Assembly (NCBI GenBank): GCA_965153355.1 | Contig: OZ231126.1 | Coordinates: 8,494,001 to 8,558,000, forward strand | From: Flaccisagitta enflata | Lineage: Eukaryota | Direction: 5' to 3' | Length of the DNA stretch: 64,000 nucleotides | Part shown: piece after piece, positions 2,861 to 57,573 of the stretch | Numbering within the stretch: the first letter of the stretch is position 1 | Layout of the letters: each line of letters starts with the position of its first letter | Notes under the pieces: generated by a model | Told to the model about the DNA's origin: nothing | Seen by the model: only the letters and a program-made list of their open reading frames with translations | Database searches by the model: none | Made by a program: the position numbers and the translations under genes

Positions 2861-3603
2861 CACTGCTCTGAAGCCATACCTTTATGTTCGTTTTGACATA
2901 ACTGCAACTTTTTTCTCAGTTTTACATGCTCAGATGATGTATAAATCCATAGCAAATGATTGCAAAAAAAGTTGTATGGCGCATATATATTTTTTTAAAA
3001 TCCCACTTTTTTACCATGAGGAAGTACAGGTTGTTGTATCTTTTCCAAAACTGCATATATGTCGTTGTTTTGCTTATATCTTTGTACCATATTGATGAAA
3101 ATACTTGCAGATGGGCTCATTTGATAGATCTTTCGATGAGCTTTCCAACTGTCACCAATTTTTTGTAGATTCATCAAAAAACAACCAAATTATGAGTGTT
3201 CAAAGTGATCCTAAGGATACAGGTTGTTGTAGCTTTTTGTATGATGCATGAATGCTTTTGTTTTGCGTGTATCTTTTTGACAAATTTATGAAGATACTTG
3301 CAGATAGGCTCATTCGATAGATCTTTCGATTAGCTTTGCAACTCTCACCAATTTTTTGTAGATTCATCATACAACAACCAAATCATGAGCGGTCAAAGTG
3401 ATCCTACTGGTACAGGTTATAGCAATTTTTTGTATGATGCGTGAATGCTCTTGTTTTGCTCATATCTTTTTAACAAATTGATGAAAATACTTGCAGATGG
3501 GCTCATTTGATAGATATTTCAATGAGTGTTCCAACTGTCTCCAATTTTTCAATTCATCAAAAATAACTGAATTATGCGCTGTCAATGTTTCCATGGTGGT
3601 ACC
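2861..3603 (+). repeat. Left TIR of the Chapaev element, with three 193-bp subrepeats
   Basis: CTTGCAGAT(G/A)GGCTCATT recurs at 3104, 3297 and 3490; inverted match to 18140-18697. Confidence 0.85.
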
Positions 3604-5174: not shown

Positions 5175-5269
5175 AATTCAGTATTGATTGCATTCAACGG
5201 CCATACACTGACAAAAACGACTGGCCTGCTTTGTTTCATGCCTGGTTCCTTTAATAACCGCCATTTTAG

Positions 5270-5910
5270 GGGGAAAGCCTCTCACTGTTGTGGCCGGCAC
5301 AAGTGATAATAAAGCCAAACGTCAAACCGGTCAACGTCAGCTCACGGCAAAAGATCTCCGTGAATTGCAAGCTGAAATAAACGCCCCAAATGAAACCATG
5401 TTCAAGATCATGACCACAGTCCGCAAACGCATTGGTCATAAGGCAATTGAAAAACATGCCAATCAGGCAATTGTTGAAGGTGGAAAGACCCTAGAGGATT
5501 TTTACGTATCCGAAAACATTTTGATGGAAGTCAAGAAGAACGAAGCTGATGTAATGGAGGAAAAAGAAAACATTGAAATCGGCACAGAGAAGACGACAAA
5601 AGGGACGCCGGCAAAGGGGAAGAAGGGAGGAGGAAAAGAACAGAAGGGAAAAGTCTCCACAAAGAAAGTCAGCGTGGAAGAACCCAAGGATATCATCTTC
5701 GTGCAAGACCCTTTAGAGTTTTTCAAATTCATTTGCGAGGCGAGAAGTTTTGATCCATCAAAAGTCATTGTGCGAATTGCGTGGGATGGGGGTGATGGGA
5801 TGTTTCTTGTTGTCGCTTCGGTGTTCGTAATGGGCGAGGAAGATGACGACGACGATGAAGATGACGATGACGATGATAAAGATAAAGATGGCGTGAAACC
5901 GGAAGGCCTT
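5270..5910 (+). CDS. Chapaev transposase exon 3, 5' part (first catalytic D, WDGG)
   Basis: ttttag acceptor gives LATG|GKPLTV; VRIAWDGGDG; ends at the Helentron junction. Confidence 0.85.
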
Positions 5911-6009
5911 TTTAGATGCGTCCTCGCATCTCTATAAGAGGGTCTGTCGTATGTATAGGGAACGCGAAAATTTCAAAATGCGATTTCTAAGGTTTTCTCT
6001 TCATTTCTC

Positions 6010-6300
6010 TTCATGTCTCTTATATCTCTTCATGTCTCTTATGTCTCTTATATCTCTTTTGTCTCAGTTGTCTCAGTTGTCTCTTTTGTCTCTTTTGTCT
6101 CTTTTGTCTCTTTTGTCTCTTTTGTCTTTTTTGTCTCTTATGTCCCTTATGTCTGCTATGTCTCTTATATCTCCTATGTCTCTTTTATCTCCTATGTCTC
6201 TTATATCTCCTATGTCTCTTATATCTCCTATGTCTCTTATATCTCCTATGTCGCTTATGTCTCTTATTTCTCTTATGTCTCTTATGTCTCCCACGTGTCT
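6010..6300. repeat. 9/18-bp minisatellite (GTCTCTTAT / GTCTCTTTT) inside the Helentron 5' region
   Basis: Directly visible tandem units. Confidence 0.85.
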
Positions 6301-6375
6301 CCTAGCTGTCTTCTACGTGTCTTCGTGTCTTCTCTTGTTTCCTTGTGTTTTTTTATATGTCATTACTTTGTGGCG

Positions 6376-6486
<111 letters not shown>

Positions 6487-6512
6487 CGGAATCCGATTTC
6501 GACTGGCTCAGT

Positions 6513-6552
6513 AATATTGCGCAATATTTCCTTATTCGTCATGACTTTATGG

Positions 6553-6626
<74 letters not shown>

Positions 6627-6719
6627 GGAATCCAATTTCGACTGGCTTAGAAATATTGCGCAATATTCCCATCTCAGCTCTCAGTATTTAAGGAGGTTAC
6701 AGTGAGAGCTTCCTCATTC
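6513..6719 (+). promoter_or_regulatory. Putative Helentron promoter: two AATATTGCGCAATATT palindromes, (CT)n tracts, TATA-like box and Inr
   Basis: Palindromes at 6513-6528 and 6652-6667; TATTTAA at 6685 lies 31 bp upstream of the A of TCATTC (6716); ATG at 6857. Confidence 0.45.
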
Positions 6720-6856
6720 TAAAGATTCGATCATTCCACTCAAACAAAAAACTGAAAAATCTTCATCTCCACTTCATTGCTTCATTTATTCTATATTCCT
6801 ACAAAAGATTGTGTGCTTTAAAATCTCTTGTGATTTGGGCTCCAACCACATAAAAA

Positions 6857-8401
6857 ATGTCGCACCAAGTTTTTCCTTCTCTCTTACTAAGAAATGGAGG
6901 GGTGGATAGCAACATGTGTTCTCTTAACAGCGTCCTTCAATTACTGCGTCACACTCCTGAATTTCTTGCGGAATTACATCTTCAGAGAAACTCTTCCCCA
7001 CTTCTTCAAATTCTCAATAACATCTTAACAACTTGTGGATCTGATATCCCAAGAAGTGCATGGAAACTAAGACAAGAACTAGCCAAGGTAACAGCAAGGC
7101 CTGAATTGAATTCTGGCCATCAACTTGATACAATCGAACTATTTGGATACCTTCTTAATTTCTGCCCCAATGAAGTATTCTGCATCCAAACAAGTTTCGA
7201 GTATAGATTCCAAGTCAATGGTCGACCATCATCATGCCCCATCTGTCATTTTCTTCCTAATGCTGCTCCTGGATCTGACACTTTACTCAGGTTGTCACTT
7301 CCTAAATCATGGCCAAAGACCTCTGCCAATCTGTCTCTGCAAACTTTGCTGGACAAACACTTTCAAATTCAGGCCCAAGGAGATGAAAGAACATGTCCAT
7401 CATGTGCAACCAAGCTTCCATATTTTGAAAAAATCCGCATTTCAAAATTCCCTACTTACATCATTATACAAATGCTTCGAATGGACTTCATCAATGGAAA
7501 AACAGTTAAAAATCCGATTGCTGTCCATATTCCAAACATGGTTGTTGTTGACAAAACACAGTATGAGGTGATTGGCACTATCACACATCAAGGCACTGCC
7601 GAAGCTGGCCACAATCGGGCCTATTTGAAGGAAGGATCAGCTTGGTATATTTGTGAGGATGCAAGACACTCCTCACAGAAAAGACCAGTTGATAGTGAAA
7701 AAGAGCAAAATTACTGCCTCCTGCTAAAAAAATCTTCAATTGAAAGTCAACATCAAACAGTATCTACATGTTCATTGACTGATAGTGCAGGACTGTCTTA
7801 CTCAGATGTGATAAATGGGGGAAAGAAGCATCCTGAACGTCGAACATGCTCCATGGAAAATATCCATCTTTCCAGTCCTCCTATGACACAAGACCAAGGC
7901 ATAAAGCGAGCAATGTCAAGTAGTACAATCAGTTCAAGCACAAGTAATGATGAAGAAAAACAACAATCAAGGGAGGTATGTAAAGGCTGTGGAAACACAT
8001 CTGCCAATAATGCACGCTTATTCACTCATTTGACTAAGAATGAACTGTGTCAAAAACGTGGAAACTATGATATGGAACAATTCAAGAAAGAATTGGATGC
8101 TGAAAAGAGGACAAAAGCTAATGAAAGGAAAAAGAAACATCGCCAACAACGAATTCAGAAAGATCCAGAAGAATATCATTCGCAGCGCGCAAAGGAACAG
8201 CAAACTTATTGTTATAAGTCAAAGGAGAAAGACATTGACGCTCATAGATTAAAGCGAAGAACCCAACAGCAAGCAGCCTCCAATGTTGATTCAATACAAG
8301 CGCAGACAAGTATTCCTAGCATCTATCAGGAAGCGAAGAACAGCAAGCTTATCGCCTCCACATTGTTGATTCTTCATACAAGCGCAGACAAGTATTCCTA
8401 G
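6857..8401 (+). CDS. Helentron ORF1: ubiquitin-specific protease (peptidase C19/USP-like), C2HC zinc finger and charged coiled coil; probable N-terminus of the Rep-Hel polyprotein
   Basis: Cys box LRNGGVDSNMCSLNSVLQLL; HQLDTIELF (QQDAxEF-like); FPTYIIIQMLR; His box YEVIGTITHQGTAEAGHNRAY...WYICED; CKGC...LFTHLTKNELC. Confidence 0.8.
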   Translation: MSHQVFPSLLLRNGGVDSNMCSLNSVLQLLRHTPEFLAELHLQRNSSPLLQILNNILTTCGSDIPRSAWKLRQELAKVTARPELNSGHQLDTIELFGYLLNFCPNEVFCIQTSFEYRFQVNGRPSSCPICHFLPNAAPGSDTLLRLSLPKSWPKTSANLSLQTLLDKHFQIQAQGDERTCPSCATKLPYFEKIRISKFPTYIIIQMLRMDFINGKTVKNPIAVHIPNMVVVDKTQYEVIGTITHQGTAEAGHNRAYLKEGSAWYICEDARHSSQKRPVDSEKEQNYCLLLKKSSIESQHQTVSTCSLTDSAGLSYSDVINGGKKHPERRTCSMENIHLSSPPMTQDQGIKRAMSSSTISSSTSNDEEKQQSREVCKGCGNTSANNARLFTHLTKNELCQKRGNYDMEQFKKELDAEKRTKANERKKKHRQQRIQKDPEEYHSQRAKEQQTYCYKSKEKDIDAHRLKRRTQQQAASNVDSIQAQTSIPSIYQEAKNSKLIASTLLILHTSADKYS

Positions 8402-8652
8402 CATCTATCAGGAATGGAAGGATTTACTTTTGCATTTGCTGTCATCGGAGGCTTCATGAGAATCAAGTCATTGAACTCCAGGAGAATTGGCAAGAACAGC
8501 ATGAAAAGCAGTGTCCAGGCTCCATTTCTAAATTCATTGGACCCATTCTTAAAAGAAAATTTTACATTCCAAACCCGATATCTGAAGAGCCACAACTTCT
8601 CACCAGTGATCATATATGTCATACCTGCAAAAAGTATCTGGATAACAACAAA

Positions 8653-11600
8653 ATGGCACCAATGAGCAACAGAAACAAGCTTGAATTTGTCAATATTGAA
8701 GCTCATCCAGAACTTAAACTCAGTGAGCTTGAGCAGCAACTTGTCGCACGCAATCTCATTTTCCAAAAGATTGTTCTGCTGCCCAAAACTCGAATGAATG
8801 CAATGAAAGACAAGACTGTAAGTGTGCCTATAGAGCCTTCAGATGTGATGGAAACTCTTACAATGCTACCGAGAACCCCAACAGATGCAAGATTGGCGGT
8901 GGTTCAGCTAAAAAGAAGGCTCAACTACCCTGGAATACACAATCAACAGCTTATCAACATGAGAAATGTCATGCAGGCCTTGCACACTTTCATTGAAATG
9001 GAAAATCCCCACTACAAAGGCATTGTAGAAGATGTTGGATTTAAGGAACGTTGTATGGAGACTGATCCTGAAGGCTTCAAGATTCTGTTTCCCGATGAGG
9101 AATCATTGTCAAATTCTCCCAACTGTGACCTTTCAACTACCCAACCAACAGTTAACCCACTCATTGTGAACTCATCTCCGGAAATCAATTCTCAGCCAAT
9201 TCCTCAAGATGAAGCGCAAGACCCAAAAAAGTCCGAGCAAGAGTTAGATGCGGAAGAAGAGGAAAAGCAATACAAGACACATGATCCAGTTGGCAAAAGT
9301 CAGTTTAACTACAATCGCTCGACATGCTTTGGCAACAACCATCCAGAAATCTTTGTGGAGGAAAATGTTGAGGAAAATACAGAAGAGCCAACAAAGGTGG
9401 CTCCAGGTGAAGGAAAAATACCACAAAGCATTCTTTACGAGGAAGACTTGGAAGTGAAGTCGTTTCCTTGTTTTTTTCCTGATGGAAAAAATGGAAAGGA
9501 TGAAAAGAGGGATGTCTCTCTGTCAGAGCAAAACTACTGGGTGCAGAGAATTCTTAATATAGATGACCGCTGTGGAAACTGCCCTCCATATGTTTTCATG
9601 GCCGCAGCTCACACAGAGATGAAGCAGATGACACGCAACATCAATTTATCATTTCAAAGAGGACTAGAAAGGGTCAGGCCAGATGGCTCCAGCGTTTACA
9701 CGCTTGAAGACCCTTACATGGTCCTCGATAATATTAAGAACACGCCGAGATACTGGAAACAAGCTCGTGGAGAACTTTTCGCCAAATTGGAGAATCTCGG
9801 TCCGTTCACTTTCTTCTTCACTCTCTCCTGCGCCGACGTTCGTTGGCCAGAAAACTTCACGTCGCTTTTAGAAGGCCATAAAGTTGCATTTGAGAGTATC
9901 AACGGAGAGGAAAAGTACTACGTCGATGGTGAACCATTGGAAGACTTCCTAAAGGCCTATCCATCCAAGCATGAGTTCATCCGCAACAACCTACTCAATG
10001 CAACTTTGAACTTCCAGCACAGATTGAAGATGTTCATAAAGCACATTGTCCTGAGTCGTGTGTCCCCATTGACTGTGGACCACTTCAACTACAGAATTGA
10101 GTTTCAGTTCCGTGGTGCCCCTCACGCCCACGGGACTCTGTGGATGGATTGGTTGCGATTCTCCGCCCTTCCAAATCAGGATATTCGAAACATTGTGGAA
10201 GGTCTCAACCTCATCAAGGCAGGTGACATGTTAACTTCAACACACACAAAATCTTTAGTTTCTTTTGCCGACCTCTTTGTATCGGTCAGTCTGAAAAATC
10301 CAGCGACCAAGGAAATTGTCAAGGAGGTCAACATTCACCATCACACAAAGAAAGCCTGTCAGAAATATGGCACAACCTGTCGCTTCAATTTTCCTCGCTT
10401 TCCAATTCATCAAACAACAATTAGCGCGCCATCCCACATCATTTATCCAGATGAGAAGGAAAGAAAGGAAAAGATGTTGAAGCACGCTATTTTTCTCGAA
10501 GCTGTGAAAGATGTTCTTGAAGACGAAACCAAGATGACGTCAGTATGCCTCCACAATCAAGAGAAGATTCAAGATATTTGCCAAGAACGTCAACTGAAGT
10601 GGCAATTACAAGCTCTCATTGCTGAGAAAAGTCACGAAAAGAGTACCAACGTCCCGGTCGACCTACAAGAATTTCTGCAAGATGTCGTGGGAGATGATGG
10701 TCGCGTCCAGATTAAAGAATTGGAAAAGAAAGAAAGCCAACTTGATGACAGAGAGGAGGAGCTAACTTTGATCATCAAGACAAGAGTTGAAAAAATGCTT
10801 TCTCTCATTGATATCACCAATCTGACACCAGACGCTTTACCCATGTTGGAGAGATACGAAGCTGCCTTATCCGTAAACAAGAGAGGTTACTCTATCCACT
10901 ACAAAAGAGACGTCGATGAAATCATGGTTAACACCTACAATCCAGAGTGGATTCAAGCGTGGAATGGAAACATGGATTTCCAACTATGTCTGGACTATTT
11001 CGCCGTGATTACCTACATAAGCGACTACTATTGTAAAGACGACAGCGGCGCCATGAAGATGTTGCAAGAAGCTCTGAAGGAATTCATGCATGAAGATCTC
11101 AAAACGCAATTGAAGAAAATGGTGTCAGTTTTTCTCACCCACAGACAAATGGGCGAGAGCGAAGCCTATTATCGGATCTTGCCAAGTATGCACATGAAGG
11201 AATCAAGTATTACCACCATTTTTGCCGCAACCGGTTTCAATCCCAGTCGCTACTTGGAAAAAGTGGATGAAAAAGAAGTTCACAAATGTGACAAGATTGT
11301 CGAGGTGGAAGGTCGAACAGGAAAGTACCAGGAGAAACCGTCTATATACGAAAAGTACCTAAGACGGAATTGCTCCAAACAACCACACATCAAGAACTTA
11401 AGTTACGCGCAATTTGTCAAACGTTACCAGTCAGTTGGAAAGATTGATGAAGACTTTGATTTCTCACCCAAAAAAGTAGCGAAGACTTTTGACAAGAATG
11501 GATCGCCAATCTACAACAATCATATCATTACAAGAGAATATGATAACTTGGACGAAGTTCTGGAGTTGCCAAAATTCATTGAAATTACAGATGTGAAACC

Positions 11601-14175
11601 AGGAGAACACCCGTACATGAGGTGCAGATCCCTTCAAGTACTACGTTACTGCAAATTCAATCGTGAAAAAAATCCTCACGAGTACCTCTTCTCTGAGCTG
11701 CAGTTATACCATCCTCATTGCAACTGCAAGAACTCAAATTTGGAAAGAGAAAGAGAGGATATTGAAGTCTGCCAAGTCACATTTTCCAACGCAAACATTG
11801 GTGGAGTAAAAAGCAAGATCATGCCATTTCTCGAGTCGGTGGAAGAGGGACTAGAAAGAGCTCAAGAGCTAATTAACACTATAGGCGATGAAATGGATCC
11901 ACAAAATGAACAAGACAAAGACGAATGCGAAGCGGAGGGTGTTGAAGATCATCCTGATTACTCTCATATCGACCCAGACAATCTACCGCAACAAGAAAAT
12001 GAAGCGAGTACGGGTCTCTTCAAAACTGTAATCCTCGAAACTGAAAAGGATTTGGTGGATCTAACCCGCAAACTGGATCCAGACCAACAGTCTGTATTAA
12101 ACATTTGTCTCAAGTATGCTTTCGAAATCCAAGTAAGTAGGAAAAAACCTACACAGGTGAAACCACCTCTCGTTATTGTTCAAGGAGGTGCTGGTGCGGG
12201 AAAGAGTCAAGTCATCAGAGTGATTTCTCAATGGTTTGAAAAACAATTGCGCCAAGCGGGAGATGATCCAGATAAACCATATGTTTTAATTACAGCGTTT
12301 ACGGGTTGTGCGGCTTCAAACGTGGATGGGATGACACTCCACAGCGCATTCAATTTTGGTTTTGGAAACGAGTTCTTGTCTCTTGCAGACAAAACGAGAG
12401 ACGAGAAAAGAGAAGCCTTGAAAAACCTAAGAATAGTGATCGTTGACGAATACAGCATGATGAAAGCGGACATGTTATATCAACTTGATCTGCGTCTCCG
12501 AGAATTAAAGCAAAATATGGAGGATCCATTTGGTGGCTGTGCCATTTTTCTATGTGGAGACATTCAGCAATTGAAGCCGGTGATGGGCCGATACATTTTC
12601 CAACAACCATTGTGTGCGGATTACCATTTACCATATATGATTGATCCATTGTGGCGCAAATTCCAAATTGTCTTCTTGACTCATAACCACCGTCAAGGCG
12701 AGGACAGAGTCTACGCTGATATTCTGAACCGGATGCGGACAGGGGACCACACCGAGGAAGATTGTCGCACTCTCGAAGGCCGAGTCATCAGTGAAAAAGA
12801 TCCAGCCTTACCCATCGATGCTCTTCATGTGAACTGCACAAACAATGGAGTCAACAAAATAAATAACCAACGACTCAATGCCATGCACGGACAACTTCAC
12901 TCCTTTGTCGCTTCAGTCAGCAGATCTGGCGAGAAGCTGCAGAATCGAGACGGAACCCCTAAAGCTCCAAAATTGAAAGCAGATGGTTGTATCTTCAACA
13001 CGCCACTTCAATATAAGTTGGACTTAAAAATTGGAGCGAGGGTCATGTTGACCTACAACGTCGACACTTTAGATTCCTTGGCAAATGGCGCTCTTGGCGA
13101 AGTTATTGGATTCGAAACATCAAGCAACAAAACCGTGAAATCTATATTGGTCCAATTTGAAAATGTGAAAGTTGGCCAACAAAAAAGAAAACAAAATTCT
13201 AGATCTCTTCAACAGAAATTTCCCAACATCGCCGTGACGCCCATCGCAAAAATTGAATGCCGATTCCACTTGTCCAAAAATCCTACTTCACAAAATGATT
13301 TCATGCTGGCAACGCAGTTTCCTTTGAAGGTGGCATTTGCCAGCACCGCCCACAAGATTCAAGGCTCGACAATCAAAGCTCCAAAGCAATTGATCGCCGA
13401 CTTGAAATCTGTAAGGGAAGCTGCTCAAGGCTACGTCATTTTGAGCAGAGTACAGAAACTTGACCAACTCTTCATCCTCAATGAATTTCCGAAGGACAAA
13501 ATTTATCCTTCAAATACGGCCATGGAAGAACTCCAGAGACTCCAAGAACTAGCAGAGAATGATATTTCAAATCGACAAGAAGTCCTCATTTCTTCCATGA
13601 ACATAAGATCACTGATGAAACATCATAAAGACATTGAAAATAATGCAAAAATTCGATCAAGTGTCATCGCATTGCAAGAGACGTGGTGCGATGGAGGACA
13701 TACTAACGATAATTTCCCACTGCAAGGTTATAACTTGCAGTTGGTCAGCCAAGGTCATGGAAAAGGCGTCGCTGTCTATTTCAGAACGGGATTTGTTGTT
13801 GCTGGAATCTTCAATAAAGAACTGTATCAAATGGTGAAGGTAGCTTGTGATGAATTTGACATCATTAACGTTTATCGATCGAAAAATGCCAATAAATCGG
13901 AGTTTCTCAAAGATCTTGGGTGCCTCGCAAGAGGAACAAAAGCCTGTTACATCGTTGGTGACTTTAACATTGACTTTTCTGTCGAACCAAAGGATTTCGT
14001 CATCAGAACGATTCTCTCAAATGGATTCTCTCAAATTGTTACAACTCCAACTCATCTGCAAGGTGGACTTATTGATCATGTCTATTGCAAAAATGTTTCT
14101 TTCGAACCTCAAGTACGCTTGAGTCATTGTTATTACTCTGATCATGCATTGATTTCTGTTTGTAAACCAATTTGA
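8653..14175 (+). CDS. Helentron Rep (HUH)-PIF1-family helicase-APE/EEP endonuclease transposase
   Basis: Rep motifs FFFTLS, YRIEFQFRGAPHAH, YISDYYCK; helicase motifs GGAGAGKS, IVDEYSM, GDIQQLKPV, HRQ, QFPL...TAHKIQGST, YVILSRV; endonuclease motifs NIRSL, LQETW, GDFNID, IDHVY, YSDH; the frame is open upstream to 8320 and encodes FCICCHR...ICHTC. Confidence 0.96.
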   Translation: MAPMSNRNKLEFVNIEAHPELKLSELEQQLVARNLIFQKIVLLPKTRMNAMKDKTVSVPIEPSDVMETLTMLPRTPTDARLAVVQLKRRLNYPGIHNQQLINMRNVMQALHTFIEMENPHYKGIVEDVGFKERCMETDPEGFKILFPDEESLSNSPNCDLSTTQPTVNPLIVNSSPEINSQPIPQDEAQDPKKSEQELDAEEEEKQYKTHDPVGKSQFNYNRSTCFGNNHPEIFVEENVEENTEEPTKVAPGEGKIPQSILYEEDLEVKSFPCFFPDGKNGKDEKRDVSLSEQNYWVQRILNIDDRCGNCPPYVFMAAAHTEMKQMTRNINLSFQRGLERVRPDGSSVYTLEDPYMVLDNIKNTPRYWKQARGELFAKLENLGPFTFFFTLSCADVRWPENFTSLLEGHKVAFESINGEEKYYVDGEPLEDFLKAYPSKHEFIRNNLLNATLNFQHRLKMFIKHIVLSRVSPLTVDHFNYRIEFQFRGAPHAHGTLWMDWLRFSALPNQDIRNIVEGLNLIKAGDMLTSTHTKSLVSFADLFVSVSLKNPATKEIVKEVNIHHHTKKACQKYGTTCRFNFPRFPIHQTTISAPSHIIYPDEKERKEKMLKHAIFLEAVKDVLEDETKMTSVCLHNQEKIQDICQERQLKWQLQALIAEKSHEKSTNVPVDLQEFLQDVVGDDGRVQIKELEKKESQLDDREEELTLIIKTRVEKMLSLIDITNLTPDALPMLERYEAALSVNKRGYSIHYKRDVDEIMVNTYNPEWIQAWNGNMDFQLCLDYFAVITYISDYYCKDDSGAMKMLQEALKEFMHEDLKTQLKKMVSVFLTHRQMGESEAYYRILPSMHMKESSITTIFAATGFNPSRYLEKVDEKEVHKCDKIVEVEGRTGKYQEKPSIYEKYLRRNCSKQPHIKNLSYAQFVKRYQSVGKIDEDFDFSPKKVAKTFDKNGSPIYNNHIITREYDNLDEVLELPKFIEITDVKPGEHPYMRCRSLQVLRYCKFNREKNPHEYLFSELQLYHPHCNCKNSNLEREREDIEVCQVTFSNANIGGVKSKIMPFLESVEEGLERAQELINTIGDEMDPQNEQDKDECEAEGVEDHPDYSHIDPDNLPQQENEASTGLFKTVILETEKDLVDLTRKLDPDQQSVLNICLKYAFEIQVSRKKPTQVKPPLVIVQGGAGAGKSQVIRVISQWFEKQLRQAGDDPDKPYVLITAFTGCAASNVDGMTLHSAFNFGFGNEFLSLADKTRDEKREALKNLRIVIVDEYSMMKADMLYQLDLRLRELKQNMEDPFGGCAIFLCGDIQQLKPVMGRYIFQQPLCADYHLPYMIDPLWRKFQIVFLTHNHRQGEDRVYADILNRMRTGDHTEEDCRTLEGRVISEKDPALPIDALHVNCTNNGVNKINNQRLNAMHGQLHSFVASVSRSGEKLQNRDGTPKAPKLKADGCIFNTPLQYKLDLKIGARVMLTYNVDTLDSLANGALGEVIGFETSSNKTVKSILVQFENVKVGQQKRKQNSRSLQQKFPNIAVTPIAKIECRFHLSKNPTSQNDFMLATQFPLKVAFASTAHKIQGSTIKAPKQLIADLKSVREAAQGYVILSRVQKLDQLFILNEFPKDKIYPSNTAMEELQRLQELAENDISNRQEVLISSMNIRSLMKHHKDIENNAKIRSSVIALQETWCDGGHTNDNFPLQGYNLQLVSQGHGKGVAVYFRTGFVVAGIFNKELYQMVKVACDEFDIINVYRSKNANKSEFLKDLGCLARGTKACYIVGDFNIDFSVEPKDFVIRTILSNGFSQIVTTPTHLQGGLIDHVYCKNVSFEPQVRLSHCYYSDHALISVCKPI

Positions 14176-14695
14176 TCGTTATTGTATAAGTTCTTGCTAC
14201 TGAAAAAAAGTAATTTGATTCATAAGAGGGTGGAAGAAATATAAATGTTACTAACAAATAAAAGGATGATGATGCTAATACCTTATTCTTCATCATATTT
14301 GTTTGTGACATTTATATTTCCATGCACTATTAGCTGGAGGAAGAAGTTTAAATCTTTAGTATACTTTAATATGATCTGGACTAAATCTATGCCTTTCAGC
14401 TGACAGTGCATGTGGGTGGTATGAATCAAATTATTTTTTTTAATTAAGTTTGCCTTTGCTTACTCATTAAATGTTTCAATTCTCATATTTTCATGATTCA
14501 TATCAAAACTTATTTAGTCATATCATATATTCTCTTATCTTATTTCAAATATCTAAGAGGAATCAGTTTATATCTTTCTCTTTATCTCTGACTCTTTATA
14601 TTTTCATATTATTATATCTTGATATCTTAATAAATTGTATGATAATATCTTACGTCTAAAGAGGACGCATCTATTGGACATCTCTTGGCCTTGTT

Positions 14696-14723: not shown

Positions 14724-15168
14724 AACAAGCCCGGGCGGGAGACTTGATGTGTCATCAGCGCGATATTAGAGGAAGCGTAACGGATATACCGATGGATCGA
14801 CGGAAAGACCGACGGACAGACCCTCTTATAGCAGGCGTGTATAAAGTTGAGCATTACCCCCCCCCGGCGGGGGGGGGGAATAAAATCAAAGGGTTTGGAG
14901 ATGGGGAAAAAAAAAAAGAAAAAAGGAAATTTTTGAGGATTTGGTAGTTCCAAATGGTAGTCTCTGCTTACTACAACACATTTTAACACTATTTAAACCT
15001 ATAATGTACTGTTTTATTGCTTTATGGGGAAGAAAATCATAGATTTTGTAACGCGACGCAATGCGTCGTGGGGAAGAAAATCAAAGGCAGGGGGGGGGGG
15101 GAATAAAATCAAAAGCCGCTCAACTATATACACCCCTGTCTTATAGAGATGCAATGACGCATCTAAAA
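14724..15168 (-). mobile_element. HINE sharing its 5' end with the autonomous Helentron
   Basis: Reverse strand reads TTTTAGATGCGTCATTGCATCTCTATAAGA[MITE]GGGTCTGTC...ATGACACATC...GCCCGGGCTTGTT. Confidence 0.8.
14832..15138. mobile_element. hAT-type MITE (CAG...CTG termini, 8-bp TSD)
   Basis: TIR CAGG(C/G)GTGTATA(A/T)AGTTGAGC; TSD TCTTATAG on both sides. Confidence 0.88.
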
Positions 15169-15665: not shown

Positions 15666-15924
15666 GGGTGTGTTTCTACTGATTACAAGAATCTCGATTG
15701 TTCCTATGAAACGCGTTTTAGGCGTGAACACATCTTCATGAATTTGAATGGTCCCACAGGGGAGTGAGCAAAGTGAGTGAACAAGCAAAGTGAGTGAGCG
15801 AGCCAATGAACATAGCAAAGCAGAGCGGAGCGAGTGAGCAGATTGAGCGGTGCGAGCGAACGAACATTGCGAGCAACCGAGTGGTCCGTTCAAAACGCGA
15901 TTTTCTGTGACTAGAAACACGCCC
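15666..15924. mobile_element. ~260-bp MITE with 14-bp TIR GGGTGTGTTTCTA(G); superfamily unresolved
   Basis: Ends ...CTAGAAACACGCCC; other copies at 27957-28239, 35409-35993, 43705-43985 and a partial one at 24380-24615; TSD not clean. Confidence 0.75.
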
Positions 15925-16641
15925 TTGGTCGGATGGCCATTCCATCGGTCAGTGACAGAGGAGGAAGAAAAACAGAAAAGGAAAGCAAAAAAGAAAAAGA
16001 AAAGATAAAGAAAGTAAAAGTAGAGACGAGAAAAAAAGAAAAAAAAAGGAGAAGAAGATAAAGCAAAGAAACAAAAAAAAAAGAAAAAGAAAACGAGGAA
16101 GCAGTAGACGAAGCAGTAGACGAAGTAGGGAAGAAGAAGAAGAAGAAGAAGAAGAAGAAGAAGAAGAAGAAGAAGAAGAAGAAGAAGAAGAAGAAGAAGA
16201 AGAAGAAGAAGCAAGGACGAAGAAGAGGAAGACGAAGAAGAAGAAAAAGAAGAAGAAGAAGAAGAAGAAGAAGAAGAAAAAGAAAAAGAAAAAGAAAAAG
16301 AAAAAGAAAAAGAAAAAGAAAAAGAAAAAGAAGAAGAAGAAGAAGAAGAAGAAGAAGAAGAAGAAAAAGAAGAAGAAGAACAACGACGATGACGACGACG
16401 ACGACGACGACGACGGAGAAGAAGCACTAGACGAGGATAAAGGCACAGATGATGGATAAAGGCACAGATGATGGATAAAGGCACAGATGATGGATAAGAA
16501 GAAGAAAATGTGACAAAAGAAAATTTAAAACAAAAACAAAAGGAAAAAAAATGAAGAAAAGAAGAAAAGAGAGAGCAGGAAGGGAGAGTAAGAATTATGG
16601 TTTAGATATTGAAGAATAAATCGCAATGCTTTGATCTGCAG

Positions 16642-18914: not shown

Positions 18915-20508
18915 ATTGGGGTGTCGGTATCAATCAAGTTTGGAAATGCCAATTGGACGTATGACCAGGCCATGCCCAATCACAAATCATCTTAATAACG
19001 AGAAGGAAAAGTCCATGAGACTTGATCATGCATATGTACTTGTCTTGGAATGATATGCTTGATGTCATGTCAAAATTGAAAACCGGAAAAGCATCGGCAA
19101 GTTTCATCAAGGCAGAGCATATACTTTACGGATCTCCTAAATTAGCGTGGCATTTGCATCTTTTATTTAACGCAATGATTCAACATTCATATGTGCCGCA
19201 CGATTTCTTGAATGGTGTAATTACACCCCTAATTAAAGATAATGAAGGTGATCACTCTGATCCAAAAAATTACCGTGGTCTGACTTTAGGTGTTGTTTTT
19301 TCATATTTATTTGAACATGCCATGTTGATCAAAATTGGCCATCTTTTATATACTGACTCAGTACAATTCGGGTACAAGAGACATCACTCTACATCACATG
19401 CTATTTTTTCTTTAAAAGAATGCGTTGATTATTTCACTGACCGCGGTTCAAATATTTTTGCTGCCTTTTTAGACTGTTCGAAAGGTTTTGACAAGGTGAA
19501 CCATAGTGGAATGTTTATTAAGTTGATGAAACGAGGTTTACCACTTTGTTTTTTGAATTTACTAATATATTGGTATTCAAATCTAACAAGTATGGTTAAA
19601 TGGAATGGAATATTTAGCAAAACTTTTCGTGTGTATTCTGGTGTTCGCCAAGGGGGCGTTCTTAGTCCGCGCCTCTTTGCAATTTACATTGATGACTTGA
19701 TTTTACAATTGAGAAAGTTAAATGTTGGATGTCATTTAATTGAACTTTTTCTTGCTTGCGTAGTTTATGCCAATGACATTTGTCTATTAGCCCCATGTCG
19801 CTCCGCTTTGCAATTACTTTTAGATACCTGTGTTTCTTATGGACTCTCTTGGTGTTTATCTTACAATCCTACTAAATCGAAAGTAATGTATTTTGGAAAA
19901 GGTGTTCAATCACCAACATTTGAAATGTATGGAAAGCCTCTCGAGTACGTTGATAGGTATAAGTACCTAGGTGTAACTGTTGTTGCTGGTGCTACATTTA
20001 CGACGTCACATTTGAAACCACTAATTAGTTTTCGTTCAACTGCTAATACGATTCTTAATGTCCATCAGAGACCATCCGAACAAATTCTTATGAAAATGTT
20101 GTATGCAGCGTGTGTGCCTCATTTAACCTATGCAGCAGATGTTGTTCAATATTCGGTTGCTCAAATGCAGCAACTTAACGTTGCCTTGAACGACTGTATT
20201 CGCCGGATTTTCACCTACAACAGGTGGGAAAGCGTTCGTTTTTTACGTCTCTCATTTGGGTATCCATCACTGACCGAAATTTTTGATAATCGCTCTCGGA
20301 AATTTGTGAAACAACTCTCGGTGATAGGCAATTCAACCTTAAAACGTTTGCAACAGATACTTTTACAACGCTTAGTTGACTCAAACTGACATGTTGTCTT
20401 TTGGCCTTTTTTTTCCTCCTCCTCCCCCCCTCCCACACTTAGAGTAAACCTAGAGTTAGATGTATGTTGCTGTACGCTCTGTCGCTCATGACGAATAAAA
20501 GATATTAT
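18915..20508 (+). mobile_element. 5'-truncated non-LTR retrotransposon (LINE), clade unresolved
   Basis: RT ORF without an endonuclease domain; short 3' UTR with AATAAA at ~20494; 5' boundary approximate, TSD not identified. Confidence 0.8.
19022..20389 (+). pseudogene. LINE reverse transcriptase (C-terminal part of ORF2), YADD mutated to YAND
   Basis: NYRGLTL, QFGYK..HST, FLDCSKGFDKV, GVRQGGVLSP, YANDI, YKYLG. Confidence 0.9.
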
Positions 20509-36898: not shown

Positions 36899-38859
36899 TC
36901 TATTACCAACTTAGCTACTAACCTTCCAGATTTAGCTACTAAAAGAGGTACCTTAGCTATTGGATTAAGCATCTGGAATCTAGCTATTTTTTTAGCTACT
37001 TTCAGGATAAAAGTTTAGCTACTTTTAGCTACTAAAGAAAGCAGGCTGCACAATGCGAAAAATGTTTTGTTTAGGGGCTAGAATTTAGGCCCAAGAAGGT
37101 TATTTAAGCTTAATTAAGCTGATTCAAGGTGTTACGTTGGCAATTCTGGGGCTTGAAATACCTTGTTTAGGCAAAAAAAGCACAATTCGAGTTAAGAAGG
37201 GTTAAATCAAGAGGAAGGCTAGACGAAGTCCTCAATTGGCAGCATTTTTGCAAATAAGAGCATATTTCAAACCAAAGGCAGATATTTTTAGCCTGACAAT
37301 TTTAGGCAATAAAAAGTAAATTTCAAGCTCTGACAGAGTTGATTTACGAATTAGGTTCTATGATAACTTGATTCAAGATGTTGCTATCACAAAGACACCA
37401 TGGACAGATGAACAGAAGAAAATTCCCCTTGCATTTTAAAGGATATTTGCTCTATACTGCTGCCACCCAAAATACAAAGTGGTATAGTTTAACCCTTGAA
37501 TGGATGCTTAGCGACTTACAAATTTTGGTTGTTAAATGAGGATTTCTTTCTCAGCTCCTACGTGAGACTGAGGAAATGGAGCGAAGTAGGACTCCATGAT
37601 ATATTTTTTTTCTTATTTATCCCCCCCCCCTTATCTCTTTTTTTATCCTTTTCCGTTTCTGAACAAACTTTAGTTGTAGCACTGTGACTATGATTGCTGT
37701 ATGGAATTGTCGCATTTATGTTGACAAAAATAAACGTAATAATAATAATAATAATAATTATCAATTGATGAAATAAACACAAAACAAAGTCGGAAACTCA
37801 GCACCACAGTTGCATATGGCAACTGCTCACAATTCAGGATTGCAATGGATGGACCAACGGACCTACCAACCTATTGACCTACCTACCCACACAGCAAGGT
37901 GTTGTCACACATCTGCGACTAAAAATATACAGGGATCCAAATTCCATATCCAATAGTAGTGGATATAACGGTTCCAATTATCTGATCATTAGAGGGACAG
38001 ATTGACTAAGGGAACAATCTATACTTGTGACATGTGCAACAATTCATCCTAGAAAACTCATACAATTACCAAAGTAAAAATAAAATAAAAATCTATTGAA
38101 AAATTGAAAAGAATATGGACATTTATATAGTGTAAGCTTCCATTACATACACATACATACCTAAAATATGGTTTTTTGAAACACTATCAAAATTCCTTAG
38201 GTATATACTTTTTACTAAATGTATCATATTTTTTCTATCTTAAGAACTTTTTTAGTGTATTTTATGAGATACAATTCATTTTAGGGTAAGGGTATTGTTA
38301 GAGCCGTCTTCTGGCATTGATCGGGATCATCAACTCATGTTGAAACAAAGGCAGATGTGTATATAATTGCGTTGTCTTTGAATCCCCCACTCCCCCCCTG
38401 CCTTTGATTTTTGATGCGTCGCGTTTTAAAATCTTTGATATTATCACCCATAAGGCAATGAAACAGTAAGCTAAGGTTTAAGTAGTGTTAAATTGTGTTT
38501 TACTAATCAGCCTTTATGATTTAGTACAGCCAAAAATTATTTCCCCCAAATTTTCTTTTTTTCTCTTTTTCCCCCTTTGACTTCTTTCCCCATCTCCAAA
38601 CCCAACATGGGGGGGAACCTAATTATATACAGGCCTGAACAAAAGTCATAAGCATTTTTTTTCATTAAAGGTTGAAAGAATAATGGTCCAGAATGAAAGA
38701 AATAATGTTTTTATCATCAATTCTAACTCATTTTCCCCATCTAGAATAAACAGTAAATCTAGCTACTAATCTGGAATGTTCGAACAATTTTTTAGCTACC
38801 ATCTGGAAGGCTGGAGCACTCCATCTGGAATTTTGAGCCCAGGCCAGGTTGGCATCAGA
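36899..38859. mobile_element. Non-autonomous TIR element with a 10-bp direct-repeat flank (MULE- or hAT-like)
   Basis: GATGGGGAAG on both sides; imperfect TIR TCTATTACCAACTT / TCTGATGCCAACCT; subterminal TTAGCTACT and ATCTGGAA repeats at both ends. Confidence 0.6.
38352..38637. mobile_element. hAT-type MITE (same family as 14832-15138)
   Basis: CAGATGTGTATATAATT...AATTATATACAGGCCTG; TSD AACAAAGG / AACAAAAG. Confidence 0.78.
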
Positions 38860-56715: not shown

Positions 56716-57573
56716 AACAGGTCGCCCAAGGGCAATATGTGGTCAGCGATACCCGTTGCCCTGCTTCGCATGGGTGTAAATCGGAATGAGAGGCAGAGCA
56801 GCGGCCCCGAAGGGGACGAAGTCCTGTAGAACACAGGGGACTTTCGTTCGTTCGTCCGTCCATCCATCCGCCCCCCCCCAGACCCTCTCAGGCCTGAAAT
56901 CTGTCCTCTCAGGCCTAAAATCTGCCCTCTCAGGCCCGAAAACTGCCTTCTCAGGCCTTGAATCTGAGAGGGCAGATTTCAGGCCTGAGAGGGCAGATTC
57001 AAGGCCTGAGAGGACAGGTTTCAGGCCTGAAAGGCAAGGGTGTATATTCTTGAGTCGCTTTTGATTTTTTTGCCCCCCCTGCCTTTGATTTTCTTCCCCG
57101 CGACGCGTCGCGTCACATTTTTATATCCATGATTTTCTTCCCCATATAGCAATAAAACTATGTAGTTAAGGTTTAAATAGTGTTAAATTGTGTTTTACTA
57201 ATTGAGATTTATGATTTGGTACTGTAAAAACTTATATTTTCCCCAAATTTCCTTTTTTTCTCTTTTGTCCCCCTTTGATTTTCCTCCCCATCTCCAGACC
57301 CTTTGATTTCCCCCCCCCCCCACCGGGGGGGGGGAAACTCAAGAATATACAGGCCTGCTGAAAGGACAAATTTCAGGCCTGAGAGGGCAGATTCAAGGCC
57401 TAAGAGGGCAGATTTCAGGCCTGAGAAGGCAGATTTTAGGCCTGAGAGGGCAGATTTCAGGCCTGAGAGGGCCTGGGGGGGACGAACGAACTGACTGACA
57501 AACGGACGGACAATGAACGAAAGTCCCCTGTGTTCTACAGGACTTCGTCCCCTTCGGGGCCGCTGCCCAAAAA
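56716..57573 (-). mobile_element. Family-2 HINE-like element
   Basis: GCAGCGGCCCCGAAGGGGACGAAGTCCTGTAGAACACAGGGGACTTTCGTTC inverted pair; (AGGCCTGAAATCTGCCCTCTC)n followed by its reverse complement. Confidence 0.78.
57035..57357. mobile_element. hAT-type MITE (same family as 14832-15138)
   Basis: CAAGGGTGTATATTCTTGAGT...ACTCAAGAATATACAGGCCTG; TSD CTGAAAGG. Confidence 0.88.

Follow-up and report, generated by a model that had tools for sequence, protein, structure and literature searches.

A Helentron with a USP-type protease domain ahead of its Rep-helicase-endonuclease transposase

The locus at positions 6857-14175 (+) of the window (here, the whole 64,000-nt stretch of DNA that was analysed) is almost certainly one copy of a multicopy autonomous Helentron, an HLE2 with a C-terminal APE endonuclease, whose coding part begins with a ubiquitin-specific protease (USP, peptidase C19) domain. 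The intact form of this family is a single open reading frame of about 2,414 amino acids that encodes, in order, the USP, a C2HC zinc finger, a basic linker, a CxxC/DUF6570 region, an HUH Rep, a PIF1 helicase and an AP endonuclease. The window copy is itself a damaged one, either dead or crippled. The break in its frame falls where the linker gives way to the Rep N-terminus. In its present state it cannot make the fused protein.

The USP catalytic domain occupies amino acids 1-300 (6857-7756, +), an assignment based on Pfam, an AF2 model, Foldseek and a profile alignment. Pfam UCH (PF00443) matches residues 19-288 with an E value of 1e-16 and 61.8 bits against a cut-off of 23.9, covering profile positions 8-252 of 254. 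The AF2 model of the domain is of high confidence (pLDDT 89.4, pTM 0.87) and gave 456 Foldseek matches in the PDB at E <= 0.001; all matches listed are USP catalytic domains, with a best E value of 3.9e-19 and TM values of up to 0.78. The frame carries the Cys box NMCSLNSVLQ at amino acid 19 and GHNRAY at amino acid 251, and in the profile alignment C21, H252 and D268 coincide with the catalytic triad residues (Cys, His and Asp) of USP15 and USP8. GHY is the usual form of this His motif in USPs, and the close subfamily has GHNRAY in its place. Two CxxC pairs make up the zinc ribbon of the fingers subdomain. Each box is spanned by 19 family sequences of the alignment, and all 19 retain its catalytic Cys, His or Asp; among them are the fused relatives P0220, P0217, P0237, P0280, P0313 and P0080. 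At E <= 0.01, a Pfam search of both frames gave no match to OTU (PF02338) or Herpes_teg_N/VTD (PF04843). An initial annotation, made from the letters, had described the USP boxes as lying in order with their catalytic residues kept and had assigned the domain to C19 rather than OTU; both readings hold.

Cellular USPs (USP18, USP12/46, USP30, USP21, USP2 and Ubp8) share with this domain the fold (TM 0.67-0.78), the catalytic triad, the Q-x-D-x-x-E box and the Cys4 zinc ribbon. Identity in the structural alignments is nevertheless only 14-20%, and the Helentron USP is a minimal domain of about 300 amino acids that has none of the accessory domains of cellular USPs and is fused to a transposase. 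We suspect that it is most likely an active thiol deubiquitinase (DUB), or a protease of ubiquitin-like modifiers (UBLs), tethered to the transposase. It would strip ubiquitin either from the transposase or from host proteins in its vicinity, and would thereby shield the transposition machinery against degradation by the proteasome or against host restriction that depends on ubiquitin. This mechanism is proposed by analogy with the role that Erven et al. proposed for the VTD domains of Helentrons, and we regard it as about evenly balanced between right and wrong. The explanation as a whole, in which this role and the identity of the locus are blended, is in our judgement probably the best one. 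The initial annotation had offered processing of the polyprotein, stabilisation of the transposase or the countering of silencing as candidate functions.

The substrate, whether ubiquitin, ISG15 or another UBL, is not readable from the fold matches, among which USP18 comes first by a negligible margin. Specificity for a UBL such as ISG15, with the USP blunting an interferon-like or other UBL-based host response, would fit the top Foldseek match, which is the USP18-ISG15 complex at the E value given above. It would also fit the best-scoring named cellular representatives, fish proteins with 6-7 tandem UCH domains, in whose cluster one member is named 'ubl carboxyl-terminal hydrolase 18-like'. 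However, the scores of USP12, USP30, USP21 and USP35 lie no more than tenfold from that of USP18, several of them with higher TM values, and the best PDB matches by sequence are Ubp8, USP15 and USP8. The scores of the fish proteins are sums over 6-7 domains at 26-28% identity, and the host may be without ISG15. We consider specificity for such a UBL over ubiquitin unlikely.

Downstream of the USP, a C2HC zinc finger (amino acids 375-398; 7979-8050, +) is recognised by its motif and by conserved columns in the family alignment (A1). This finger is common to the family, including relatives that have an OTU domain instead of a USP; it is aligned in P0080, and the BLAST coverage of the OTU-bearing P0254 and P0257 begins at polyprotein amino acids 374 and 364, respectively. 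It is followed by a basic helical linker rich in Lys, Arg and Glu (8051-8264, +; read from the translation), in which the number of repeats differs among relatives (variable blocks in A1 columns 500-600). The remaining polyprotein, from the CxxC..CxxC region to the stop codon at 14173-14175, spans 8339-14175 (+). On the same strand it includes DUF6570 (8647-9033; Pfam E 1.8e-8, 35.3 bits against a cut-off of 24.3), a Rep of the Helitron_like_N type with HAH and YISDY (9703-10134; Pfam E 1.1e-15), a PIF1 helicase (12160-12756; Pfam PIF1 E 6.3e-25, plus Pif1_2B) with the Walker A motif GAGAGKS at amino acid 1290 of the second frame (ORF2), and an APE-type endonuclease, Exo_endo_phos (13606-14145; E 3.2e-10, 40.6 bits against a cut-off of 24.5, ORF2 residues 1763-1942). 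Motifs and Pfam thus reproduce the order that had been read by eye, the earlier 'coiled coil' being the basic helical linker. An HUH, paired-tyrosine Rep, a fused PIF1-type helicase, an AP-type endonuclease at the C-terminus and DUF6570 are all Helentron features, and DUF6570 is proposed as an HLE2 marker in the HELIANO study (Li et al., NAR 2024, PMC11417382).

The USP forms the very N-terminal end of one very long ORF, and between it and the C2HC finger lies a long linker of poor conservation. Such a layout could suit a cis-acting protease that cuts the 2,414-aa polyprotein, for example to release itself from Rep-Hel-EN, like the viral papain-like protease/DUBs. USPs cleave after a ubiquitin-like C-terminal Gly-Gly. 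However, Pfam found no ubiquitin-like domain in either frame, and the sole GG of the window linker (amino acids ~321-322) is not kept in aligned relatives. In addition, OTU and VTD domains, which take this slot in relatives, are described as DUBs, and Erven et al. showed VTD to act in trans on ubiquitin chains (PMC9741609). Processing in cis is thus an unlikely role for the USP.

Two long + strand frames are open in the window copy, one at 6854-8401 (515 aa, ATG at 6857) and the other at 8320-14175 (1951 aa). The USP frame stops at 8399-8401, and Rep-Hel-EN lies in a different frame that overlaps it at 8320-8401. The coding region had been taken to be intact; in fact the polyprotein is split into two frames because a 74-nt extra segment (8265-8338, +) shifts the frame. 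This segment is one arm of an imperfect tandem duplication, the arms of which (8252-8338 and 8331-8420) are 81% identical by self-BLAST. The joint 8264->8339, without 8265-8338, occurs in one contig each of the public runs X1, X3 and X5 (three of the four runs compared), and the frame is open for 2,414 codons once the segment is removed. P0007 likewise has the single-copy arrangement, with the USP leading to the CxxC region of the Rep N-terminus in one frame.

The split form would be functional if the 74-nt duplication had given rise to a means of restoring the fusion, either a frameshift site or a short intron of the GT..AG type (8310-8401, 92 nt). Splicing of 8309 to 8402, checked by hand, does join both frames in phase, and both long frames are still open despite a duplication of some age, which is not very recent because its arms are only 81% identical. 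Splicing would, however, remove residues that P0007 and the copies without the duplication conserve, chance would be expected to put a GT and an AG at this distance of 92 nt, and the 3′ inverted repeat of the window copy is disrupted as well. No intron is needed to join the frames in the unduplicated form, as found in P0007, the run contigs and the 2,414-codon frame; we keep functional splitting as a very unlikely alternative to a broken copy of a fused family.

The 5′ end of the element (5909-5948, +) was read from the sequence as five T (5909-5913), followed by a palindromic subterminal repeat of 18 nt (5914-5931) and a further 17 bases of the inverted repeat, a layout that agrees with the Helentron hallmarks given in PMC4067079. 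Positions 5910-5948 pair in inverted orientation with 14815-14831 and 15139-15168, as two repeat pairs of 30 nt (I2, 93%) and 17 nt (I20, 100%). The 3′ inverted-repeat arm (14815-15168, +) consists of these two pieces and includes the palindrome 15147-15164, the inverted partner of the 18-nt repeat. It is interrupted by a nested repeat of ~310 bp (~14832-15138), bordered by the 8-nt direct repeat TCTTATAG, and this small repeat is an insertion into the 3′ inverted repeat of the window copy. Between the 5′ end and the ATG, the non-coding region (5949-6856, +) contains a minisatellite (~5993-6300) as well as two long tracts of (CT)n, and part of it is internally duplicated (5993-6531 against 6111-6670, 72%). 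The same source lists palindromic subterminal inverted repeats, a terminal T run, tandem repeats inside, a 3′ stem-loop and a TT insertion as marks of Helentrons (PMC4067079). The T run, the 18-nt palindromic repeat with its inverted partner and the tandem repeats are present here, and by these marks the true 3′ terminus is expected some tens of bases past 15168. The USP ORF thus lies within the inverted repeats at ~5909 and ~15168.

Homologues of the USP made up 20 of 1,242 candidates, at 43-72% identity, and an HMMER search of representatives with the USP gave 669 matches at E <= 1e-3 and 21 at E <= 1e-30. A word-based search recovered none of the longer fused USP proteins among 1,209 candidates, weak evidence that is contradicted by the HMMER search of representatives and by the Rep-Hel searches. 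Fused forms are P0007, P0220, P0217, P0237, P0313, P0280 and P0080. The full-length relatives P0220, P0217 and P0237 have the same architecture as the polyprotein: P0220 aligns from its residue 1 onward to polyprotein residues 5-2410, and P0237 has UCH, DUF6570, Rep, PIF1 and Exo_endo_phos by Pfam. The closest Rep-Hel relatives (P0195-P0201) are 53-68% identical. When the USP alignment was used to scan metagenome contigs of JGI, 30 pattern matches came up, none of them confirmed.

We consider the element multicopy because 612 contigs of run X1 fall on 6700-14300 and spread over the identity classes (162 at 99% or more, 173 at 95-99%, 176 at 90-95% and 101 below 90%). Among the 40 best-supported of 765 differences, which were chosen by the tool and come from metagenome contigs that possibly mix copies and individuals, 15 are listed for the USP domain, 10 of them synonymous where 22% would be expected (p 3e-4), and 22 for Rep-Hel-EN, 17 of them synonymous. 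The USP domain is an integral and selected part of the transposase and not private cargo of the window copy. The initial annotation had allowed for a USP present in this copy alone and decaying there; 20 homologues, the fused relatives, the invariant catalytic residues and the mostly synonymous differences say otherwise. A captured host gene fragment that decays neutrally, or a separate host gene adjoining the Helentron, would agree with the separate ORF in another frame in the window copy, with the statement of the HELIANO study that UCH, like 16 further accessory domains, is encoded outside the RepHel ORF (PMC11417382), and with the empty word-based search, but the USP lies inside the inverted repeats, is joined in frame to Rep in other copies and in seven fused relatives, and has invariant catalytic residues and mostly synonymous listed differences, which makes this alternative scarcely credible.

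A USP that is integral to the transposase is not universal among close relatives. In the Rep-Hel tree, the USP is visible in just 4 rows of the 29-row USP clade, and none was detectable in the 279-513-aa N-terminal extensions of the full-length-looking members P0205, P0209, P0214, P0215 and P0216. Some lineages can therefore dispense with the USP or replace it.

The USP sits in the N-terminal slot that is taken by OTU or VTD in related Helentrons. Precomputed Pfam assignments in the 120 Rep-Hel relatives listed include UCH in five, OTU in three and Herpes_teg_N in two. OTU-bearing relatives are P0250, P0254, P0257 and P0265, and VTD/Herpes_teg_N occurs in P0226 and P0229; an N-terminal OTU is above the cut-off in P0265 and weaker, under the cut-off, in P0276 and P0296. 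The initial annotation had proposed the capture of a second deubiquitinase class. A USP in the place that OTU or VTD takes in relatives fits the filling of one slot by a different class; a third class, VTD, had already been found active in Helentrons. We tentatively suggest, as a possibility that falls somewhat short of even, that the slot was filled independently by USP, OTU and VTD, unrelated thiol-protease folds, ahead of a shared C2HC/linker/Rep core, with the USP form making up its own clade of endonuclease-bearing Helentrons in which it is one protein with the transposase. If so, the removal of ubiquitin or a UBL at the site of the transposase would be a near-obligatory and repeatedly reinvented step of Helentron transposition and not an incidental capture, and the compact USP would be a third, tractable enzyme with which to look for the host target.

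Helentrons occur widely among animals, and we know of no established reason why they carry deubiquitinases. HeliNoto, reportedly described by Capriglione et al. in 2014, is by its title a Helitron2 of the icefish Chionodraco hamatus with 'three deubiquitinase-like domains', and to that extent comparable with the present element. Erven et al. (Nat Commun 2022, PMC9741609) report that Helentron VTD domains cleave Ub-AMC and K48, K63 and K11 chains in vitro, note OTU domains, and argue that Helitrons gain from deubiquitination via different DUB classes, the proposed role being protection of the transposition proteins. Like those domains, the USP, a putative thiol DUB with conserved catalytic residues, lies within the ORF of an endonuclease-bearing Helitron; unlike them, it belongs to C19, another fold and family.

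The USP had been regarded as outside the usual Helentron cargo and possibly novel, yet UCH is already catalogued by HELIANO, which counts it among 20 domains that are stable components of Helitron-like elements, nearly exclusively of HLE2 (PMC11417382). The elements described there resemble ours in that UCH lies upstream of RepHel, is stable in Helentron/Helitron2 types and goes with DUF6570. They differ in that UCH is enriched in HLE2 subgroups c and d, mostly of lungfish and axolotl, and is in a non-RepHel ORF, with the endonuclease almost exclusively in subgroup b. In the family of the window element, the USP and the endonuclease share one polyprotein frame, and the host is marine and seen in marine metagenomes. 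In the literature on Helitrons or Helentrons and ubiquitin or deubiquitinases, covered mostly at the level of titles and abstracts, HELIANO was the only study found that ties UCH to such elements (PMC11417382).

Because both the presence of a USP in such elements and the general DUB idea are already in print, we claim no new category; the modest novelty lies in the USP being fused in frame in an element that also has the endonuclease, and in a distinct clade of USP-bearing elements. The in-frame fusion, the invariant catalytic residues and the OTU/VTD slot strengthen the argument for a functional link between deubiquitination and rolling-circle transposition, and the USP domain, small and well folded, suits biochemical work.

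A protein-atlas look-up returned UCH clusters that are mostly from giant viruses, which we note as a lead only. Apart from a reverse transcriptase at 19019-20389, Pfam identified no family in the upstream ORF (5212-5937) or in a further 13 long ORFs of the window. The nested repeat of ~310 bp has further copies in the window at 57031-57359 (-) and 38348-38603 (-).

The copy studied here has two open frames on the + strand, ORF 1 (6854..8401, 515 aa, with its first ATG at 6857) and ORF 2 (8320..14175, 1951 aa). ORF 1 has a Pfam UCH match (PF00443; E 1e-16, 61.8 bits, cut-off 23.9) that extends from residue 19 to 288 and covers the profile from position 8 to 252 of 254. ORF 2 matches DUF6570 (E 1.8e-8), Helitron_like_N (E 1.1e-15), PIF1 (E 6.3e-25), Pif1_2B and Exo_endo_phos (E 3.2e-10), and neither frame has a Pfam match to OTU or Herpes_teg_N at E <= 0.01. 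The motifs named in the initial annotation could all be located in the two frames by motif search: NMCSLNSVLQ (residue 19), GHNRAY (residue 251) and a C2HC finger (residues 375-398) in ORF 1, and HAH and YISDY in the Rep and GAGAGKS in the helicase of ORF 2.

The USP domain was modelled with AlphaFold2 from a 21-sequence alignment (mean pLDDT 89.4, pTM 0.87). Foldseek returned 456 PDB matches to the model at E <= 0.001; all of those listed are USP catalytic domains, with a maximum TM-score of 0.78 (USP30). When the family profile is aligned with USP15 and USP8, C21, H252 and D268 coincide with their catalytic Cys, His and Asp, and the Q-x-D-x-x-E box is likewise matched. The catalytic residues are retained in 19/19 sequences covering each box, and conservation among family sequences extends to both zinc-ribbon CxxC pairs. 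With Pfam, AlphaFold2, Foldseek and the USP15/USP8 alignment in agreement on a C19/USP domain with its catalytic residues, as proposed earlier, the identification of this domain in the element's first frame is solid. A less likely reading of this USP is a UBL-specific enzyme, for example a USP18-like deISGylase; the Foldseek ranking, in which USP18 comes first (3.9e-19), does not discriminate.

The proposed USP-Rep-helicase-endonuclease element is present, but its frame is broken rather than intact in the window copy. ORF 1 and ORF 2 overlap at 8320-8401 in different phase, and there is an imperfect tandem duplication (8252-8338 versus 8331-8420, 81% identity). When contigs from four public DNA runs were aligned to 6700-14300, one contig in each of X1, X3 and X5 (runs from two studies) joined 8264 to 8339, skipping 74 nt. 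Without this segment, the ATG at 6857 opens 2,414 codons up to a stop at 14173-14175. P0007, a related protein whose USP domain is 72% identical, has the single-copy arrangement where the window copy is duplicated, and runs in a single frame from USP through finger and linker to the CxxC region of the Rep N-terminus. Together, the shorter contigs, the restored frame and P0007 indicate that the ancestral product is a single predicted polyprotein and that the window copy is frame-shifted. Within such a polyprotein the USP might cut its own chain in cis, but neither a ubiquitin-like cleavage site nor a ubiquitin-like domain was found there.

A near-length search recovered 20 USP homologues from 1,242 candidates (43-72% identity), all with PF00443 and all from short ENA contigs. 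In an exhaustive search of representatives, the USP matched 669 proteins at E <= 1e-3; the number falls to 75 at <= 1e-10 and to 21 at <= 1e-30. The Rep-Hel query found 134 relatives at E <= 1e-10; in the best 120 of these, precomputed Pfam annotation places UCH in five (P0217, P0220, P0237, P0280 and P0313), OTU in three and Herpes_teg_N in two, and the profile of the close USP family matches four. P0220 covers polyprotein residues 5-2410 from its own first residue, P0217 covers 9-2410, and P0237 (2,592 aa) has UCH, DUF6570, Rep, PIF1 and Exo_endo_phos in one protein. P0080 (3,191 aa), a distant USP-RepHel fusion, carries UCH, DUF6570, Helitron_like_N and PIF1 and has the C2HC finger in common with the element, with no endonuclease match. 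Its C-terminal residues ~3069-3163 resemble a USP a second time, though weakly (BLASTP E 0.11 to residues 179-270 of the window USP). In run X1, 612 contigs align to the element at identities from >99% down to <90%, and the element family has many copies, which differ in age. Differences are synonymous in 10/15 cases in the USP domain (~22% expected, p 3e-4) and in 17/22 cases in Rep-Hel-EN (~21% expected, p 2e-8), an excess that is supportive rather than decisive, given that the test used 40 tool-chosen differences of 765 from metagenome contigs. The rival reading of a pseudo-enzyme or neutral cargo is contradicted by the homologues, the fusions and the invariant catalytic residues.

In intact family members, these comparisons show that the predicted transposase begins, in one translated frame, with a USP domain that has its catalytic residues complete and appears to be under selection. 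We suspect that it is an active deubiquitinase (DUB), which would free the transposase or nearby host factors of ubiquitin and would thereby counter degradation or ubiquitin-dependent restriction. This role follows Erven et al. 2022 (PMC9741609), a study which reports that VTD domains of zebrafish Helentrons react with Ub-PA and cleave Ub-AMC as well as K48, K63 and K11 chains, and argues that different DUB classes benefit Helitrons, as in herpesviruses.

For the Rep-Hel tree (FastTree, 90 rows, window sequence added), the input was 123 proteins with a BLAST hit; P0007, P0165 and P0167 were left out by choice, and 30 more, including P0313, were dropped for incomplete coverage. The window sequence falls with P0217, P0220 and P0237 in a 29-row clade (support 100) with zero OTU- or VTD-labelled rows. 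P0280 is sister to a 42-row clade with 5 OTU rows, the VTD rows form a separate clade, and P0080 sits on a very long branch and its placement is unsure. The USP label changes at least twice, on the starred branches; unlabelled rows are mostly N-terminally truncated predictions. The USP is not universal even within the 29-row clade, since five members (P0205, P0209, P0214, P0215 and P0216) each carry an N-terminal extension (279-513 aa) in which no USP is detected. Alignments of OTU-bearing relatives to the polyprotein start at the C2HC finger, so the finger and linker belong to a shared core and the first ~300 residues form an exchangeable module.

Among named cellular proteins, the highest scores against the Helentron USP (26-28% identity) go to tandem-UCH proteins with 3-7 domains each, some of them from fish (P0023 from Pempheris klunzingeri and P0025 from Antennarius striatus, with P0076 and P0071 also in this group); one cluster member has a USP18-like name. 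By language-model features, the clusters nearest to 6857-7756 are compact UCH proteins (262-409 aa, score 0.95-0.96) recorded mostly from Nucleocytoviricota, a possible lead to other mobile elements or viruses that carry a minimal USP domain.

The initial interpretation was right in substance but is not novel, as HELIANO (Li et al. 2024; PMC11417382) already lists UCH among 20 additional domains with a stable place in Helitron-like elements, nearly always HLE2 (Helentron/Helitron2); UCH is enriched in subgroups c and d (lungfish and axolotl for the most part). The same survey assigns the endonuclease almost exclusively to subgroup b and counts UCH with domains in ORFs other than RepHel, whereas in the window's family USP and endonuclease share a single frame and the host is a marine organism, itself detected in marine metagenomes. 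The element belongs to an already known kind of UCH-carrying Helitron-like element, with a somewhat unusual domain combination. Beyond HELIANO, no paper tying USP to Helitron-like elements was found in the literature covered, partly by title and abstract. According to its title, a 2014 paper describes HeliNoto, the Helitron2 of an icefish, with "three deubiquitinase-like domains"; it may bear on priority.

The segment 5909-5948 consists of five T, an 18-nt palindromic sequence and another 17 bases; its inverted complement is found in two parts, at 14815-14831 and 15147-15168. The stretch from this 5' repeat to the ATG contains a minisatellite and two (CT)n tracts. These repeats and tandem tracts agree with the Helentron layout described by Thomas et al. 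2014 (PMC4067079), in which palindromic repeats lie subterminally, a few bases from a T-rich 5' end, tandem repeats are internal, and a stem-loop follows the 3' repeat by some tens of bases. The 3' inverted repeat of the window copy is split by a ~310-bp repeat (14832-15138) bounded by the 8-nt direct repeat TCTTATAG. Other copies of this interspersed repeat recur at 57031-57359 and 38348-38603 (both -); the three window copies are 69-75% identical and contain G-runs and C-runs.

Upstream, a 241-aa frame at 5212-5937 (+) terminates in a stretch of acidic D/E residues and extends into the 5' inverted repeat; it matches no Pfam family at E <= 0.01 and could represent either a host exon or a different repeat that was the target of the Helentron insertion. 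Just downstream of the element, long low-complexity tracts at 15900-16600 (poly-A/T and GAA/GAG-type repeats) yield spurious ORFs, 150-350 aa in length, on both strands. About 4 kb downstream, a 456-aa frame at 19019-20389 (+) with a reverse transcriptase match (RVT_1, E 2.3e-24) is a retroelement fragment.
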